Below, piece after piece: positions 1,723 to 13,232 of a stretch of 13,232 nt of DNA (positions within the stretch are counted from its first letter, which is position 1; every line of letters begins with the position of its first letter). The position numbers were made by a program, and so were the translations under genes. Origin of the DNA: a virus; UHGV virus genome UHGV-0258858, one strand, 5' to 3'. The notes beneath the pieces were generated by a model, which saw only the letters and a list, made by a program, of their open reading frames with translations, did no database searches and was not told where the DNA came from.

Positions 1723-2811
1723 TTACGCGGCAGGGACATTAACGGTTACTGTCGCCAGAGCGACAAAATTACCGTTATCACTCATGACCACGACCGACGT
1801 TGTTCCTTTCTCAAGTGCGTTTACCGTCACTGTGTTCTCCTTCAACGTGGCTGTGGCCACCGCACGATGCACGGTCGACACCCTTAATGAAGGATCAGAC
1901 GCATTATCCGGCAACACAGCCACAGTAAGTGTGCCTGCCTTCCCTTTTTCTAGGGTCAGGGTTTCCGGTTTAATGGTCACACCGGAAACCGGCGTAATTT
2001 TAGTGAGATTTTCAGCCATCGACGGGCGTCCCACATTGGTAACTTTCACCGTTCTGGTGATCACTTCCTTCGCCGTCACGGCCTTACCGATACTGCTGAC
2101 CCAGCCACTGAACACATCCACCGTACCATTCGGGAACCGGATTTTATAGGCCCTGACATCCCCGCTTTCAAACCATGCGATAAGCCCTTTCTGACCTTTC
2201 TCACCCGGTTTCCAGGCCAGCGTAAAACTGGTATCACCTGCAGATTTCTGTCCCTGCCCGGTCGCGGTCCAGTCCGCGTCTTCATCATCCAGGTAGTTAT
2301 CATCGTAGGATTCAGCCGTCATCTCGCCCGGCGTCAGATCCTTCACCTTAGCCAGTCGCTGCCAGTCATCGTCTGACAACGGGTTTGCATAAGCATCAGC
2401 CTTGCCGTTGTAAACCCACAGAGTGGTACCGGCACCTTTTACCGGCTCCAGGGGATTTGGTGTTGCCATATCGTCATCACGATGATACTCATAGCCCTGC
2501 GTAACCATCGTGGTAATCAGTCCTGCCAGTGCCGGGATCGCAGTCATCGCCGGATAAATCCGGCTTTCCATCCACTGATCGAGCTCCGAATCAGGTACCT
2601 GTGCCGGTAAAAACACCTCAATATGCAGTGTGGCCCGCCAGGTATCTGCATCCAGCTCTTCACCGGTATACTCTGCATCCGTCAGATAAACCGCGATCGC
2701 AGGAAAATCCTCTTCGTCAAAAACAACGGGGCGACCATCAAACAGCGTCGCCCCGTGTTCATGCTGCTCGAGTGCATCCAGCACTGCGGCACGAATGTCA
2801 GTGTGTTTCAT
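1723..2811 (-). CDS. Single 362-codon ORF: tail terminator (lambda gpU-like, residues 1-114, 2470..2811) fused in frame to major tail protein with C-terminal Ig-like domain (lambda gpV-like, 248 aa, 1723..2469)
   Basis: N-terminus [28 protein letters not shown]...[10 protein letters not shown] matches lambda gpU residues 1-114. It is followed directly by [20 protein letters not shown]...VTVNVPAA, which matches lambda gpV from its initiator Met. There is no stop, intergenic spacer or ribosome-binding site between the two parts. The U start overlaps the Z stop (ATGA). Confidence 0.85.
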
Positions 2812-11286: not shown

Positions 11287-11502
11287 CTCCTCTCCATAAG
11301 TCATCGATAAAAAGCGAAACAACAACCATGTGTTTTTGCAAAACCATTTGATATCATTGATATTTTTCGCATTGACGACATCAAAACACATCGTAAGGTT
11401 GTTGTATTTATTTTATTTTCACCTTACTTATCAATTAGATATACAAAACAATTAAACAACAACCACCCCCTCAAAAAATCTCATAAATAGTGAAAACGCG
11501 CG
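11287..11502 (-). promoter_or_regulatory. cosB-like terminase-binding region between cosN and the Nu1 start: three copies of a GGTTGTTGT element in direct/inverted/direct arrangement around an AT-rich segment
   Basis: Minus-strand GGTTGTTGTTT at about 11455-11465 and 11317-11327; inverted copy (plus-strand GGTTGTTGTATTT) at 11398-11410. The AT-rich stretch 11410-11455 lies between them. The arrangement parallels lambda R3 / IHF site / R2 / R1, but the repeat sequence is not the lambda one. Confidence 0.6.
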
Positions 11503-11514
11503 AGGTCGCCGCCC
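11503..11514 (-). other. cosN cohesive-end site, exact match to the lambda 12-nt cohesive end GGGCGGCGACCT
   Basis: Minus strand reads ...CCGTTACGGGGCGGCGACCTCGCGCGTTTTCACTATTTATGAGATTTTTT..., matching lambda cosN and its flank (GGGCGGCGACCTCGCGGGTTTTCGCTATTTATGAAAATTTT) with only a few substitutions. Orientation is correct relative to Nu1. Confidence 0.85.
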
Positions 11515-11881
11515 CGTAACGGCCCGGATCGCCGGAAAGGACCCGAGAAAATGATAATGGTTATCAGTTGCAACAAAATCCAGTTTCTTCCACCATCGCA
11601 CCGGACGAGCGACCATGAGGGGACAACGCCACGCTCCGTTAACGCGGTAAACTCCGGTGTTTATCGTTTTTGATTATCCCCGCACACTCGCGCAGAGGAG
11701 TCTCCCGGTAGGGCTGCGGTCTCTGTTCATGTGGGAATACGGCGACGATACTGCGCAAAGACATGCTTCAGAAATACATAAGTAAACTAAAATATTGTAT
11801 CTCTGTGGCTAATTACGTAAATTGGTGGCTTGGCCCCTTTAGCCACCGGCAAATCTTCAGCGGATTATCCTTGGCCGGTTT

Positions 11882-12340
11882 TTATCTGAGGCATTGCTCA
11901 CGAATGTATAGCTGTGCCCCTTCCAGCTGCTTCTGCATTGTCATCAACCGTTCTCTGAGGATGAAATAATCCCGTTCAGCGGCGTCTGCCAGTCTGGGGC
12001 CGGTTGCATTATCCACGCCGGAGGTGGTGGGGGCTTCACGCACGGAGCCTGGACAGGTGGCGTTGATCCGCAGGCGCTTACGACCAGCGGCAACGTCAGC
12101 GCGAAGAGTTTCATTTTCAGCTCTCGCATCGGCTAATTCCCTCGAGTATTTTGCATCGAGCGCAGCAACATCGCGCTGGCGCACCTGCATATCAGTAATG
12201 GTTGCGTTCGCCAGCTTCAGTTCACTGGCTTTGTTATCGCGCTGCGCTTTGTAGGTAATCGCGTTATCACGGTAATGGTCTGTTGCCATCCACAGCGCTC
12301 CACAGGCCACCAGCAGAATAACGATAAACGCGGAAAGCAT
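11882..12340 (-). CDS. Rz: Inner-membrane spanin (lambda Rz-like), 152 aa from ATG 12340; alternative GTG start at 12355 overlaps the upstream stop
   Basis: [90 protein letters not shown]...[43 protein letters not shown] is near-collinear with lambda Rz (153 aa): N-terminal transmembrane segment then coiled coil. Confidence 0.92.
11944..12129 (-). CDS. Rz1: Outer-membrane lipoprotein spanin (lambda Rz1-like), 61 aa, embedded in the +1 frame of Rz
   Basis: [61 protein letters not shown]: signal peptide with lipobox (VSAC), penta-proline stretch, and near-identity to lambda Rz1 (...[32 protein letters not shown]). Lies entirely within Rz. Confidence 0.85.
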
Positions 12341-12351
12341 TCGGTTTATGT

Positions 12352-12483
12352 TCACCCCAGCAGCCCCGACGAAGACAACATCATCCAGGCCATGGAAAGA
12401 AAAAGAGCAACCAGCATTAGTGAAAATGAAATGCCGACAATTACACAGAGGATCTTCGCCAGCGTTATGAGTTTGTCTGACAT
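12352..12483 (-). CDS. Small hypothetical membrane protein, 43 aa ([43 protein letters not shown]), between the endolysin and Rz
   Basis: ATG at 12483 preceded by a strong ribosome-binding site (AAGGGAGGA, 7-nt spacing). Single predicted transmembrane helix. Stop TGA overlaps the GTG at 12355 of the Rz frame. No family recognised. Confidence 0.55.
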
Positions 12484-12497
12484 GCTTAATCCTCCCT

Positions 12498-12680
12498 TCA
12501 CGATTTCAACGCAATGACCAGTTTTGCCAGCCCATACAGCATCGGGGACACAGCAACACCGACCGCCACCCACTTAATGGCAAAAGCCAGTGCTCTGCTG
12601 ATGTCATCAGTTACAGGCGCTTTCAGTTCAAGGCCGTTTTTCATAGTCAACCTCAACAGAATTCGTTTATACTTTTCCAT
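12498..12680 (-). CDS. Small hypothetical protein with C-terminal transmembrane anchor, 60 aa from ATG 12680 (71 aa if started at GTG 12713)
   Basis: [60 protein letters not shown]: basic N-terminus and hydrophobic C-terminal segment. AGGGAGA precedes the ATG at a short (3-4 nt) spacing. Stop TGA sits inside the ribosome-binding site of the next small ORF. The GTG alternative lies inside the terminator hairpin. No family recognised. Confidence 0.45.
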
Positions 12681-12707
12681 GTTCTCCCTTGCCTTATCCA
12701 AGGTCAG

Positions 12708-12747
12708 AAACACAAAACCCCGCTTGCAGCCAACAAACGGGGTTTTT
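12708..12747 (-). terminator. Intrinsic terminator hairpin between the endolysin stop and the small ORFs; U-tracts on both sides, better stem on the minus-strand transcript
   Basis: Plus strand CCCCGCTTG-CAGCCAA-CAAACGGGG (12718-12742) followed by TTTTTACTTTTATT. On the minus-strand RNA the single C/A mismatch becomes a G-U pair, giving a 9-bp stem with a 7-nt loop followed by UUUUGUGUUU. Confidence 0.65.
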
Positions 12748-12836
12748 ACTTTTATTCACTTAGTTTTTGTCAGTTCGCAGGATTTCGTGTTATCCGTCCG
12801 TGTGAGCAAACCGCATTTTTCAGCAAAATATTCTGC

Positions 12837-13232
12837 TTATCTGTCAATTCCCCAGCACGCCAGCGCGCTCTCCTGGTCACGCCGCGATACCTGCCCGTAA
12901 CAGTTATTTGAGCGATTCCGACAGTCCCTGCCGCCGTCATATATCCATCGGCGGATTTCAGCACATGCACCTTTCCGGTCTCCGGCGTTCAGTTTCCGGT
13001 AAAACGTTGAGGTGAAGCATTTCGAAGGCCCGATGTTGTACGGACAGAATGACGCGATGCCCGCTTTCTGCGGTTCAGTCAGTGGCAATTTGATGTTTTT
13101 CTCCACCCATGCCAGCGCCTTATCACGTTCAATGGCATTAACCTGAGCGCATTTTTCCTTCGACAACTTCATGCCCGGGACGACAGGTTTGCCATCCACC
13201 ATGATGGCACCACGGCAGATGGTCCAGATACC
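12837..13232 (-). CDS. R: Endolysin, T4/phage-21-type lysozyme (glycoside hydrolase family 24), C-terminal 131 codons; 5' end lies beyond the window end
   Basis: Frame open from the window edge: GIWTICRGAIMVDGKPVVPGMKLSKEKCAQVNAIERDKALAWVEKNIKLPLTEPQKAGIASFCPYNIGPSKCFTSTFYRKLNAGDRKGACAEIRRWIYDGGRDC...ALACWGIDR resembles phage 21 R / T4 lysozyme-type endolysins (GVWTVCHG...GACDQLRRWTYAGG). TAA stop at 12837-12839. Confidence 0.9.
   Translation of the reverse strand, partial: GIWTICRGAIMVDGKPVVPGMKLSKEKCAQVNAIERDKALAWVEKNIKLPLTEPQKAGIASFCPYNIGPSKCFTSTFYRKLNAGDRKGACAEIRRWIYDGGRDCRNRSNNCYGQVSRRDQESALACWGIDR

Follow-up and report, generated by a model that had tools for sequence, protein, structure and literature searches.

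Two small membrane-protein genes between endolysin and Rz in a lambda-like Escherichia coli prophage: candidate lysis-tuning cargo

This work examines two small open reading frames (ORFs), ORF1 of 60 amino acids (aa) and ORF2 of 43 aa, that lie between the endolysin gene and the Rz/Rz1 spanin genes of UHGV virus genome UHGV-0258858. The window, i.e., the whole stretch of 13,232 nucleotides (nt) analyzed here, is part of a lambda-like siphovirus prophage of Escherichia coli whose genes are read on the minus strand. Both ORFs are genuine coding genes for small membrane proteins, because each is under frame-specific purifying selection and has a ribosome-binding site of its own. Comparison of related loci leads us to favor, with a probability of roughly 0.4, the reading that ORF1 and ORF2 are optional cargo of the lysis cassette of prophages resembling Shiga toxin (Stx)-converting lambdoid phages, composed of a pinholin, an endolysin of the signal-anchor-release (SAR) type, and Rz-Rz1, and that they would encode late-made membrane peptides that tune lysis. 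An earlier note on this DNA had pointed to two small ORFs at 12352-12680; these limits, from the ORF2 stop to the ORF1 start, proved exact. All feature coordinates are collected in Table 1.

Coding evidence and protein features

Selection was gauged by dN/dS, the ratio of nonsynonymous to synonymous substitution rates (Nei-Gojobori), across 80 related IMG/VR loci and two annotated reference loci. In the named frame, dN/dS was 0.15 for ORF1 and 0.41 for ORF2, where substitutions preserve hydrophobicity, versus 0.8 to 1.5 in the other two frames of the ORFs; on the same loci, Rz gave 0.40, the endolysin 0.09, and the holin 0.11. The ribosome-binding site of ORF1 is AAGGGAG (12690-12684; predicted anti-Shine-Dalgarno duplex, -7.2 kcal/mol). 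That of ORF2, AAGGGAGGA, forms the strongest predicted duplex of the region (-11.3 kcal/mol) and is abutted or overlapped by the ORF1 stop codon TGA, an arrangement that had been described correctly. The two ORFs are tightly packed on the strand of the late genes, and a promoter scan of this strand from the endolysin to Rz found no sigma-70 promoter.

ORF1 is predicted to be a tail-anchored protein. Its most hydrophobic 19-residue stretch (residues 38 to 56), which corresponds to the C-terminal membrane anchor recognized earlier, is weakly hydrophobic (mean Kyte-Doolittle hydropathy, 1.88) and in this respect similar to the SAR domain of the endolysin (1.78) and the second membrane segment of the pinholin (1.70). 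The 37 residues before it are basic (net charge, +4) and only ALKS follows it; by the positive-inside rule, the predicted topology is N-in/C-out. An AlphaFold2 model built on a 10-sequence alignment shows helices at residues 2 to 16 and 23 to 59 joined by a loop at GLELKAP (mean predicted local distance difference test score, 76). Prompted by a chimeric database protein (P0120, described below), we also considered ORF1 as a derivative of the second membrane segment of the pinholin and found this unsupported, with 8 of 16 identities and an E value of 0.001 in a single comparison. ORF2, for its part, is mostly one membrane helix, as had been proposed, with a very hydrophobic core at residues 11 to 29 (mean hydropathy, 2.89) and the C-terminal flank SSSGLLG; the positive-inside rule again suggests insertion N-in/C-out.

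Neither protein belongs to a named family, in keeping with the statement in the earlier note that they were not recognizable. ORF1 matches phrog_1115 over its full length (residues 1 to 60, E = 1.4e-42), phrog_4493 over residues 1 to 56 (E = 2.6e-30), and also phrog_3246, and ORF2 matches phrog_4906 over its full length (E = 2.1e-23 for the 43-aa form and 7.1e-30 for a 48-aa form from Stx phages); all are families of unknown function. No Pfam, NCBIfam, or PADLOC match was supported for ORF1 (PADLOC gave none at E values up to 1), and members of its family gave only a few subthreshold Pfam matches (E = 0.03 to 0.2). For ORF2, Pfam returned only DUF3930 (E = 0.08, under the family cutoff), and NCBIfam and PADLOC (E up to 1) returned nothing; the 48-aa form has a weak match to phrog_13249, "holin" (E = 0.079). 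Among Pfam holin families, including the phage 21-type PF04971, there was no match for ORF1 and no supported match for ORF2. A profile search of Protein Data Bank sequences found nothing below E = 0.1, and the ORF1 family profile, run against one genome per species, gave no matches. An N-terminal resemblance had suggested that ORF2 might be a divergent peptide of the WKF(L/I)L(V/I)W type (phrog_6632); this was rejected at a profile-profile probability of 1.5%.

Both genes are widespread. A 601-bp interval of the region occurs at ≥80% coverage in 990 of 5,426 complete E. coli genomes; those that have it carry a median of two copies. It is also found in the temperate phages PhiR5_2 and PhiR12_1 to PhiR12_5, in which both ORFs are annotated as hypothetical. 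Homologues of ORF2 were found in 276 phage records, mainly of Stx1- and Stx2-converting phages (including phi24B, Min27, PA2, POCJ13, and 75/02 Stx); in many of these the gene is unannotated, and the phi24B copy lies in the d_ant-Rz gap. All organism-named protein matches to ORF2 come from E. coli. IMG/VR yielded 383 ORF2 matches; in the best 80 of these, Rz lies directly downstream in 78, and ORF1 lies directly upstream in all whose sequence extends far enough. Wherever neighbors were checked, ORF2 was located solely in the endolysin-Rz junction, usually abutting Rz.

Ribosome profiling offers modest support for expression of an ORF2 homologue. Hücker et al. (2017) listed XECs191 among 465 translated, then-unannotated small ORFs of E. 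coli O157:H7 Sakai, with an RNA RPKM (reads per kilobase per million mapped reads) of 30.0, a footprint RPKM of 12.6, a ribosomal coverage value (footprints/RNA) of 0.43, and an ORF coverage of 0.55 in LB (lysogeny broth) (PMC5597208). XECs191, with the sequence MMGWLMISDKLITLVKSLCVLVGISFLVMLVAIFFSTAWRVLTLSGLVG, is the ORF2 homologue now named ECs_1966, which lies in prophage Sp10 between the antirepressor gene and Rz. On the conservation and translation asked about in the earlier note, purifying selection and the distribution across genomes speak for the former, and these footprints lend modest support to the latter.

Database proteins include chimeras and fusions. P0120 (L086) is a chimera of a pinholin N terminus and an ORF1 C terminus that derives from one 554-nt metagenome contig. 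P0090, P0094, P0098, and P0114 are fusions of ORF2, some of it out of frame, with the C-terminal half of ORF1; they reflect a rearranged junction, found in L061, L082, and L083, that has a remnant of ORF1 after ORF2. In addition, L042, L047, and L081 carry frameshifted copies of ORF1 or its 50-aa relative, which shows that the cargo has decayed in some prophages.

The endolysin-Rz junction as an insertion hot spot

We used a 177-aa SAR endolysin query to fetch 80 IMG/VR loci with endolysins 87 to 99% identical to it and classified the content between endolysin and Rz in each (Table 2). The arrangement of the window, ORF1 followed by ORF2, is the content of 20 loci; this is the outcome of the synteny survey that the earlier note had proposed. 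Across the classes, the slot is empty, holds one to three single-pass peptides (with three or more unrelated families represented), or takes an antirepressor or a methylase. Each of ORF1 and ORF2 is also found without the other, so that the pair is not an obligate one. Prophage DLP12 of E. coli K-12 has no gene in this position, its endolysin and Rz genes overlapping each other. By this comparison, the endolysin-Rz junction is a mosaic hot spot whose cargo is optional, swappable by recombination, and dispensable.

Table 2. Content of the endolysin-Rz junction in 80 related IMG/VR loci
Content between endolysin and Rz	Loci
ORF1 + ORF2 (arrangement of the window)	20
189-aa antirepressor + 48-aa ORF2 homologue (Stx-phage type)	15
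Antirepressor, ORF2, short ...IRWW peptide, DNA methylase	2
ORF1 relative of 50 aa with ...IRWW end, no ORF2 (frameshifted in one copy)	11
Unrelated peptide ...MAEKLSTWKFILIW...IRWW (phrog_6632)	12
231-aa protein + phrog_6632 peptide + ORF2	4
phrog_6632 peptide, ORF2, ORF1 remnant, short ...IRWW peptide	3
phrog_6632 peptide + ORF2	1
ORF1 + short ...IRWW peptide	1
Empty: endolysin abuts or overlaps Rz, DLP12-like	7
Unresolved (contig ends)	4

The holins of these loci vary less than the cargo. The common holin type, with the N terminus MYQMEK, is found with almost every cargo class, and with MYQM- and IHQM-type holins cargo is nearly always present. A Lys-bearing dual start of the phage 21 type is found only in holins of loci whose endolysin directly abuts Rz (L004, L021, L050, L056, and L057). 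In phage 21, the Lys-bearing holin start marks the antiholin form. We considered this pattern as evidence for an antiholin encoded separately by the cargo and set it aside: the correlation is real, confounded by lineage, and contradicted by L070.

Two side observations concern insertions nearby. The holin-endolysin junction is a second insertion hot spot (L003, L038-L084, and L186; outside the window), with gaps of 8, 403, 601, 935, 963, 1040, 1101, or 1320 nt among relatives; the insert of 403 nt carries a gene for a hypothetical protein of 114 aa (ECs_1963 in Sakai). A DNA methyltransferase-like gene of 254 or 327 aa lies just before Rz in L020 (5148-5915) and L023 and after an ORF1-like gene in L104 (2625-3608).

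Translational coupling to Rz

Within GGGGTGA, a GTG in frame with Rz (at 12355) overlaps the stop codon of ORF2 and, as the earlier note had recognized, links ORF2 to Rz. RefSeq instead starts Rz ("lysis protein") at an ATG 15 nt downstream of this GTG (12340-12355 in the window; 4546-4561 in L001). Predicted anti-Shine-Dalgarno duplexes are -5.0 kcal/mol for the GTG and -6.0 kcal/mol for the downstream ATG. At the position of this downstream Met, L020, a relative, carries ATT (Ile); the more likely Rz start is therefore the overlapping GTG, and the RefSeq annotation probably makes Rz too short. In every junction class, Rz begins either in overlap with the preceding ORF's stop or at most 12 nt beyond it. 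Termination of ORF2 would hand ribosomes over to Rz, and this hand-over would restore the translational coupling from endolysin to Rz that the insertion breaks.

Such an arrangement could also be the main purpose of the insertion. In this alternative, which we consider improbable, the role is mainly in cis: any insertion would need at its end a translated ORF whose stop falls at the Rz start, so that Rz/Rz1 stay coupled, and the peptides would have little or no function of their own. Rz does always begin at or just after the preceding stop, whichever ORF precedes it; ORF2 combines the strongest ribosome-binding site of the region with fairly relaxed constraint (dN/dS 0.41); and the ends of peptides that stop after RWW resemble the Shine-Dalgarno sequence of the next gene. 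Coupling needs no membrane helix, however, yet all slot peptides are single-pass membrane peptides. The dN/dS of ORF1 (0.15), the retention of hydrophobicity in ORF2, and the maintenance of the ORF1 family down to 32 to 45% identity, across hosts with loci of 46% to 63% guanine-plus-cytosine (GC) content, likewise argue against a mainly cis role.

A probable second start within ORF1

Inside ORF1, GAGG (12654-12651) precedes an ATG, that of Met13, by 6 nt (predicted duplex, -6.3 kcal/mol in the window). Across 16 family sequences, GAGG lies 6 to 9 nt before the internal ATG. The Arg codon 3 to 4 codons before the internal Met is AGG in 16/16 distinct sequences and always preceded by G, whereas only 2/28 of the remaining Arg codons in this N-terminal stretch are AGG. 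Met13 itself is near-invariant, and many database entries begin at the internal Met. The stretch upstream of it is conserved as protein, with differences mainly synonymous, and starts with ATG, GTG, or TTG in relatives. Because the GAGG before the invariant internal ATG is conserved, we infer that ORF1 is probably made as two nested products of ~60 and 48 aa, which would differ by a basic amphipathic N-terminal helix.

This layout recalls dual-start holins, lambda S107/S105 and phage 21 S71/S68, which are likewise nested membrane products with a positively charged N-terminal extension; that of ORF1 has a net charge of +4. ORF1 differs in that its putative starts, proposed from sequence, are 12 codons apart instead of 2 to 3 and its membrane segment is C-terminal; it also has no holin family match, and the cassette already has a class II pinholin.

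The spacer and hairpin upstream of ORF1

In an alignment of 51 distinct junction sequences, the endolysin stop is followed by a conserved noncoding spacer. It contains a variable block of ~17 nt (about 12813-12797), which differs strongly among relatives, and an adjoining conserved inverted repeat, CGGATAACACGAAATCC (12796-12780). The same repeat, CGGATAACACGAAATCC, also occurs in Salmonella-type cassettes with a phage-21-like endolysin. About 110 nt of conserved spacer are common to all junction classes except the empty one, and in all nonempty classes the spacer is followed by one of two alternative terminator-like hairpins. The motif GGATAACAC(G/A)AAATCC is also found upstream of the hairpin in L101 and L104, which have another endolysin type.

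The hairpin of the window, AAAACCCCGTTTGTTGGCTGCAAGCGGGGTTTT followed by GTGTTTCTGA, was detected by a terminator scan and had gone unremarked in the earlier note. The hairpin proper occupies 33 nt (12746-12714) between the endolysin stop and ORF1, with a predicted energy of -20.5 kcal/mol for the sense RNA and -13.6 kcal/mol for the antisense RNA. A hairpin stands at the same place before every ORF1-family gene examined; the stem sequences differ, with compensatory double changes in 6 of 11 stem pairs. At the distant ORF1-family loci described below, it is GC rich, flanked by A and T runs, and 36 to 67 nt upstream of a conserved Tyr codon at the 5' end of the ORF; for L089, the hairpin was taken from reading the sequence instead of the script's best pick.

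A hairpin that can be read in both directions, next to a small hydrophobic peptide, brings to mind type I toxin-antitoxin units. Type I toxins such as Hok/Gef, Ldr, Ibs, and Zor are peptides of 40 to 60 aa with one membrane helix, often found on prophages, and the ORFs resemble them in size and hydrophobicity. Under such a reading, ORF1 would be toxic and repressed by an antisense RNA of ~75 nt that covers the ORF1 start and ribosome-binding site, runs from a plus-strand promoter within the 5' end of ORF1 (TAGTCA-18 nt-TATACT, 12644-12673), and ends at the hairpin. The promoter-like site is rightly placed and oriented antisense toward the hairpin, and its -35 and -10 hexamers, with 18-nt spacing, recur in most KYKR-type relatives, in some with a perfect TATAAT; the hairpin, with A and T runs on both sides, reads as a plus-strand terminator too. 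However, synonymous-codon shuffles reach the promoter score in 20 to 40% of trials for most members, so that the protein sequence alone explains the promoter-like motif, and promoter-like sites are about as numerous in the region as chance predicts. G-U pairs also favor the sense hairpin in most members, as the energies for the window illustrate; there is no Rfam match; and the ORFs differ from known type I toxins in having no toxin family match and, for ORF1, no promoter of its own. Papers on Hfq-bound and Pas small RNAs report no small RNA at the endolysin-Rz junction. On the shuffles, the G-U asymmetry, and the Rfam result, we regard the antisense RNA as unsupported and keep a toxin-antitoxin unit only as a rival of very low probability.

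The wider ORF1 family

A profile search of 1.84 billion representative proteins recovered only 20 relatives of ORF1, all of 20 to 90 aa save one outlier of 4,413 aa. Family members share a basic stretch, x-Y-(K/R)-(K/R)-(I/F)-(L/F)-x-x-R-L-(T/S), followed by the near-invariant Met, K-N-G-L-E-x-D-A-P, the membrane segment, and an end in ...ALKS, ...LK, or ...IRWW; the distant relatives P0242, P0253, P0248, and P0251 match the phrog_1115 and phrog_4493 profiles. We fetched 17 IMG/VR loci for distant members, of which one was cut by a contig end, leaving 16. In seven of these 16, the ORF1-family gene directly follows an endolysin gene, in four types of cassette: a phage-21-like SAR endolysin then Rz, the same endolysin type then a methylase, a SAR endolysin then a DUF2514-type spanin, and a GH19 endolysin then lipoproteins. 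The high-GC loci have tail genes resembling those of Ralstonia phages. A search for spread of the cassette between hosts at the DNA level was negative, in that the cassette part of the high-GC locus L090 had no blastn match among phages.

Where family peptides end in ...RWW, the ATG of the next gene follows 0 to 6 nt after the stop, in eight distinct settings, and the codons at this end, TGGTGGTGA, appear to resemble the Shine-Dalgarno sequence of the next gene. The ORF1 family is thus carried on a portable unit (hairpin, ribosome-binding site, and small ORF, without a promoter), and given this spacing the unit looks built for translationally coupled operons. A bolder extension, which we regard as unlikely, is that the unit is a late-gene cassette of a type not described before, found in gamma- and probably betaproteobacterial phages, in which a structured hairpin and a ribosome-binding site precede the dual-start mini-gene of a tail-anchored peptide; in many relatives, an RWW stop at the 3' end would also serve the next gene as ribosome-binding site. 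The nested products would form a self-contained effector/inhibitor pair, similar to holin and antiholin, that controls a late membrane event. If true, such a cassette could enter coupled phage operons without polar damage.

At tail-fiber and baseplate sites, a further small single-pass peptide comes after the ORF1-like gene in L089 (2818-2964; a phrog_6632 member), L092 (2149-2298; another ...IRWW peptide), and L099 (2590-2769; resembling phrog_6632). Tandems of two peptides thus occur outside the lysis junction as well.

Proposed role in lysis and its alternatives

We propose that ORF1 and ORF2 are transcribed only within the late transcript, under the late-gene antiterminator (Q in lambda). 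Antiterminated transcription would read through the hairpin, which would otherwise block stray transcription. Both peptides would then insert N-in/C-out in the inner membrane. In the most speculative step, they would act there at the end of infection by tuning pinholin firing or release of the SAR endolysin, as accessory modulators of lysis instead of essential parts. We favor a role in lysis because ORF2 is seen only in this junction and relatives of ORF1 are enriched after four endolysin types; because ORF1 has a dual-start layout and a membrane segment with the weak hydrophobicity of SAR domains; and because Lys-bearing dual-start holins occur only where cargo is absent.

Several observations weigh against this proposal. 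Cargo is missing altogether from seven of the 80 related loci, and one of these, L070, has the same holin type as cargo-bearing loci; the correlation between holin start and cargo follows cassette lineage. Unrelated peptide families, an antirepressor, and a methylase swap against a near-constant holin and endolysin, which argues against a specific interaction with either partner. The similarity of ORF1 to the holin is limited to 8 of 16 residues, and the Sakai ribosome-profiling signal is low, comes from uninduced cultures, and may include multimapping reads. In L099, the hairpin stands by the baseplate gene gpV in phages that possibly have no antitermination, which is hard to reconcile with readthrough. 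Finally, nine of the 16 distant ORF1-family loci lie in tail, baseplate, or head operons, at sites that include those between the lambda-like tail genes K (with JAB and NlpC/P60 domains) and I, after tail-fiber genes, after the baseplate gene gpV, in the gap between tail tube and tail chaperone, and in the gap between a capsid protein and a DUF4054 connector.

These sites are also a ground for viewing ORF1 and ORF2 as moron-type accessory genes unrelated to lysis, an alternative we rate as nearly as likely as the lysis role. The products would act on the host envelope, for instance by blocking DNA entry of superinfecting phages, countering membrane-acting defense, or altering host physiology, and the junction would merely tolerate insertions. 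Lytic growth does not depend on morons, which in many cases encode small envelope proteins; lambdoid examples (HK97 gp15, lambda bor, and lom) are dispensable, mosaic, and inserted between late genes, much like the genes studied here, and morons such as HK97 gp15 occupy places comparable to the nonlysis sites of the ORF1 family. The slot is indeed hypervariable, holding several unrelated peptide families as well as the antirepressor, the 231-aa protein, and the DNA methylase; its empty state in some loci and different cargo in others fit moron dispensability, and RNA and footprints are present at a low level in uninduced Sakai cultures. However, classical morons have their own upstream promoter and a downstream terminator and are expressed in the lysogen, whereas the ORF1 unit has no detectable promoter, a terminator-like hairpin only upstream (a layout repeated in 16 relatives), and a 3' end that passes ribosomes on. 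With no promoter and the hairpin placed upstream, lysogen expression, which exclusion requires, is not expected. PADLOC gave no match, and ORF2 was seen only in this junction, usually abutting Rz.

Two known systems bear on the proposed lysis role. P2 LysA, to which the earlier note compared the ORFs, is a nonessential membrane protein thought to modulate lysis timing; it is larger and multipass. The comparison holds for position, as LysA lies within the lysis cassette between endolysin K and the spanin genes lysB/lysC, and fails for sequence: no Pfam or PHROG link was found, and the slot here holds two single-pass peptides (60 and 43 aa) from families that vary by phage. The releasin of phage Mu, gp25 (DUF2730), is a membrane-tethered cytoplasmic protein needed for release of the SAR endolysin; it has 99 aa, an N-out/C-in topology, an N-terminal membrane segment, and an acidic cytoplasmic domain of 73 aa (PMC9239132). 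Like gp25, ORF1 would be a small protein tethered to the membrane, with part of it in the cytoplasm, and its gene lies a few genes at most from those for a SAR endolysin and spanins; ORF1 differs in being tail-anchored and N-in, with a basic cytoplasmic part of 35 aa. No Pfam match to DUF2730 (PF10805) was found for ORF1, ORF2, or 13 ORF1-family members. Of the roles suggested in the earlier note (lysis timing or antiholin action, a toxic pair, or an exclusion moron), none is established by these data, and that of a dedicated lysis regulator is weakened by the comparative results.

Flanking genes and other features of the window

The genes flanking the two ORFs are those claimed previously, as supported by Pfam matches (Table 1). 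On the minus strand, the 3' part of the endolysin gene is followed by ORF1, ORF2, Rz with embedded Rz1, and a noncoding stretch with cos; past cos come Nu1, terminase A, portal, protease, head decoration protein D, major capsid protein E, and tail genes. The complete endolysin homologue in L001 has 177 aa and a signal-anchor-release-like N terminus, MSRKLHYGLSVAVLALIATGASAPEIL.

Table 1. Features of the endolysin-Rz region in the window
Feature	Coordinates	Strand	Details
Endolysin gene R (SAR-type), 3' part	12837..13232	-	PF00959, E = 2.9e-20; 5' end outside window edge; stop TAA 12839-12837
Conserved noncoding spacer	12747..12836	-	After endolysin stop
Terminator-like hairpin	12704..12746	-	Flanked by A run and T run
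ORF1, tail-anchored small membrane protein (phrog_1115/4493)	12498..12680	-	60 aa; ATG 12680, TGA 12498
Internal GAGG + ATG, probable second start of ORF1	12642..12654	-	ATG 12644-12642 = Met13
ORF2, single-pass, very hydrophobic peptide (phrog_4906)	12352..12483	-	43 aa; ATG 12483, TGA 12352
Rz (inner-membrane spanin)	11882..12355	-	PF03245, E = 1.3e-48; GTG start at 12355
Rz1 (outer-membrane lipoprotein spanin)	11944..12129	-	PF06085, E = 1e-21; within Rz, other reading frame

The lambda-type cos sequence, GGGCGGCGACCT (about 11514-11503, minus strand), lies within ACGGGGCGGCGACCTCGCG between Rz and Nu1, in a noncoding stretch at 11400-11880. The Rz-to-cos interval has no bor gene, unlike that of phi24B. 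Tail genes U and V, which are separate in lambda, form a single ORF of 362 aa (1723-2811, minus strand) with Phage_tail_U at residues 1 to 117, a tail tube domain at 132 to 266, and Big_2 at 275 to 355, and with no stop separating ...YHRDDD from MATPNPLEP. The terminase large-subunit gene is an intact ORF of 661 aa in the window; in NCTC9112, where it adjoins a near-identical cassette (L001 6093-8022), it is annotated as frameshifted.

Significance

The two genes are common and already catalogued as hypothetical, so that their bare observation is not new. A survey of Stx-phage lysis cassettes describes only pinholin, SAR endolysin, and Rz/Rz1, without mention of the ORFs (PMC8136144), and the peptide strings of the ORFs are absent from searchable full texts. 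We believe that three points are undescribed in the searchable literature: the mosaicism of the junction, the near-universal and often unannotated ORF2 homologue of Stx phages, and the occurrence of the ORF1 cassette across late operons.

In Stx phages, the timing of lysis determines both the moment and the amount of toxin and phage release. The ORF2 homologue (43 to 48 aa, directly before Rz in 276 records, mostly of Stx phages) and a second family present in about a fifth of complete E. coli genomes are thus candidate components of a medically relevant lysis system. The ORF1 cassette, in turn, offers a simple case of how small genes may spread through tightly coupled phage operons and a case for asking whether nested dual starts are general in small membrane proteins.

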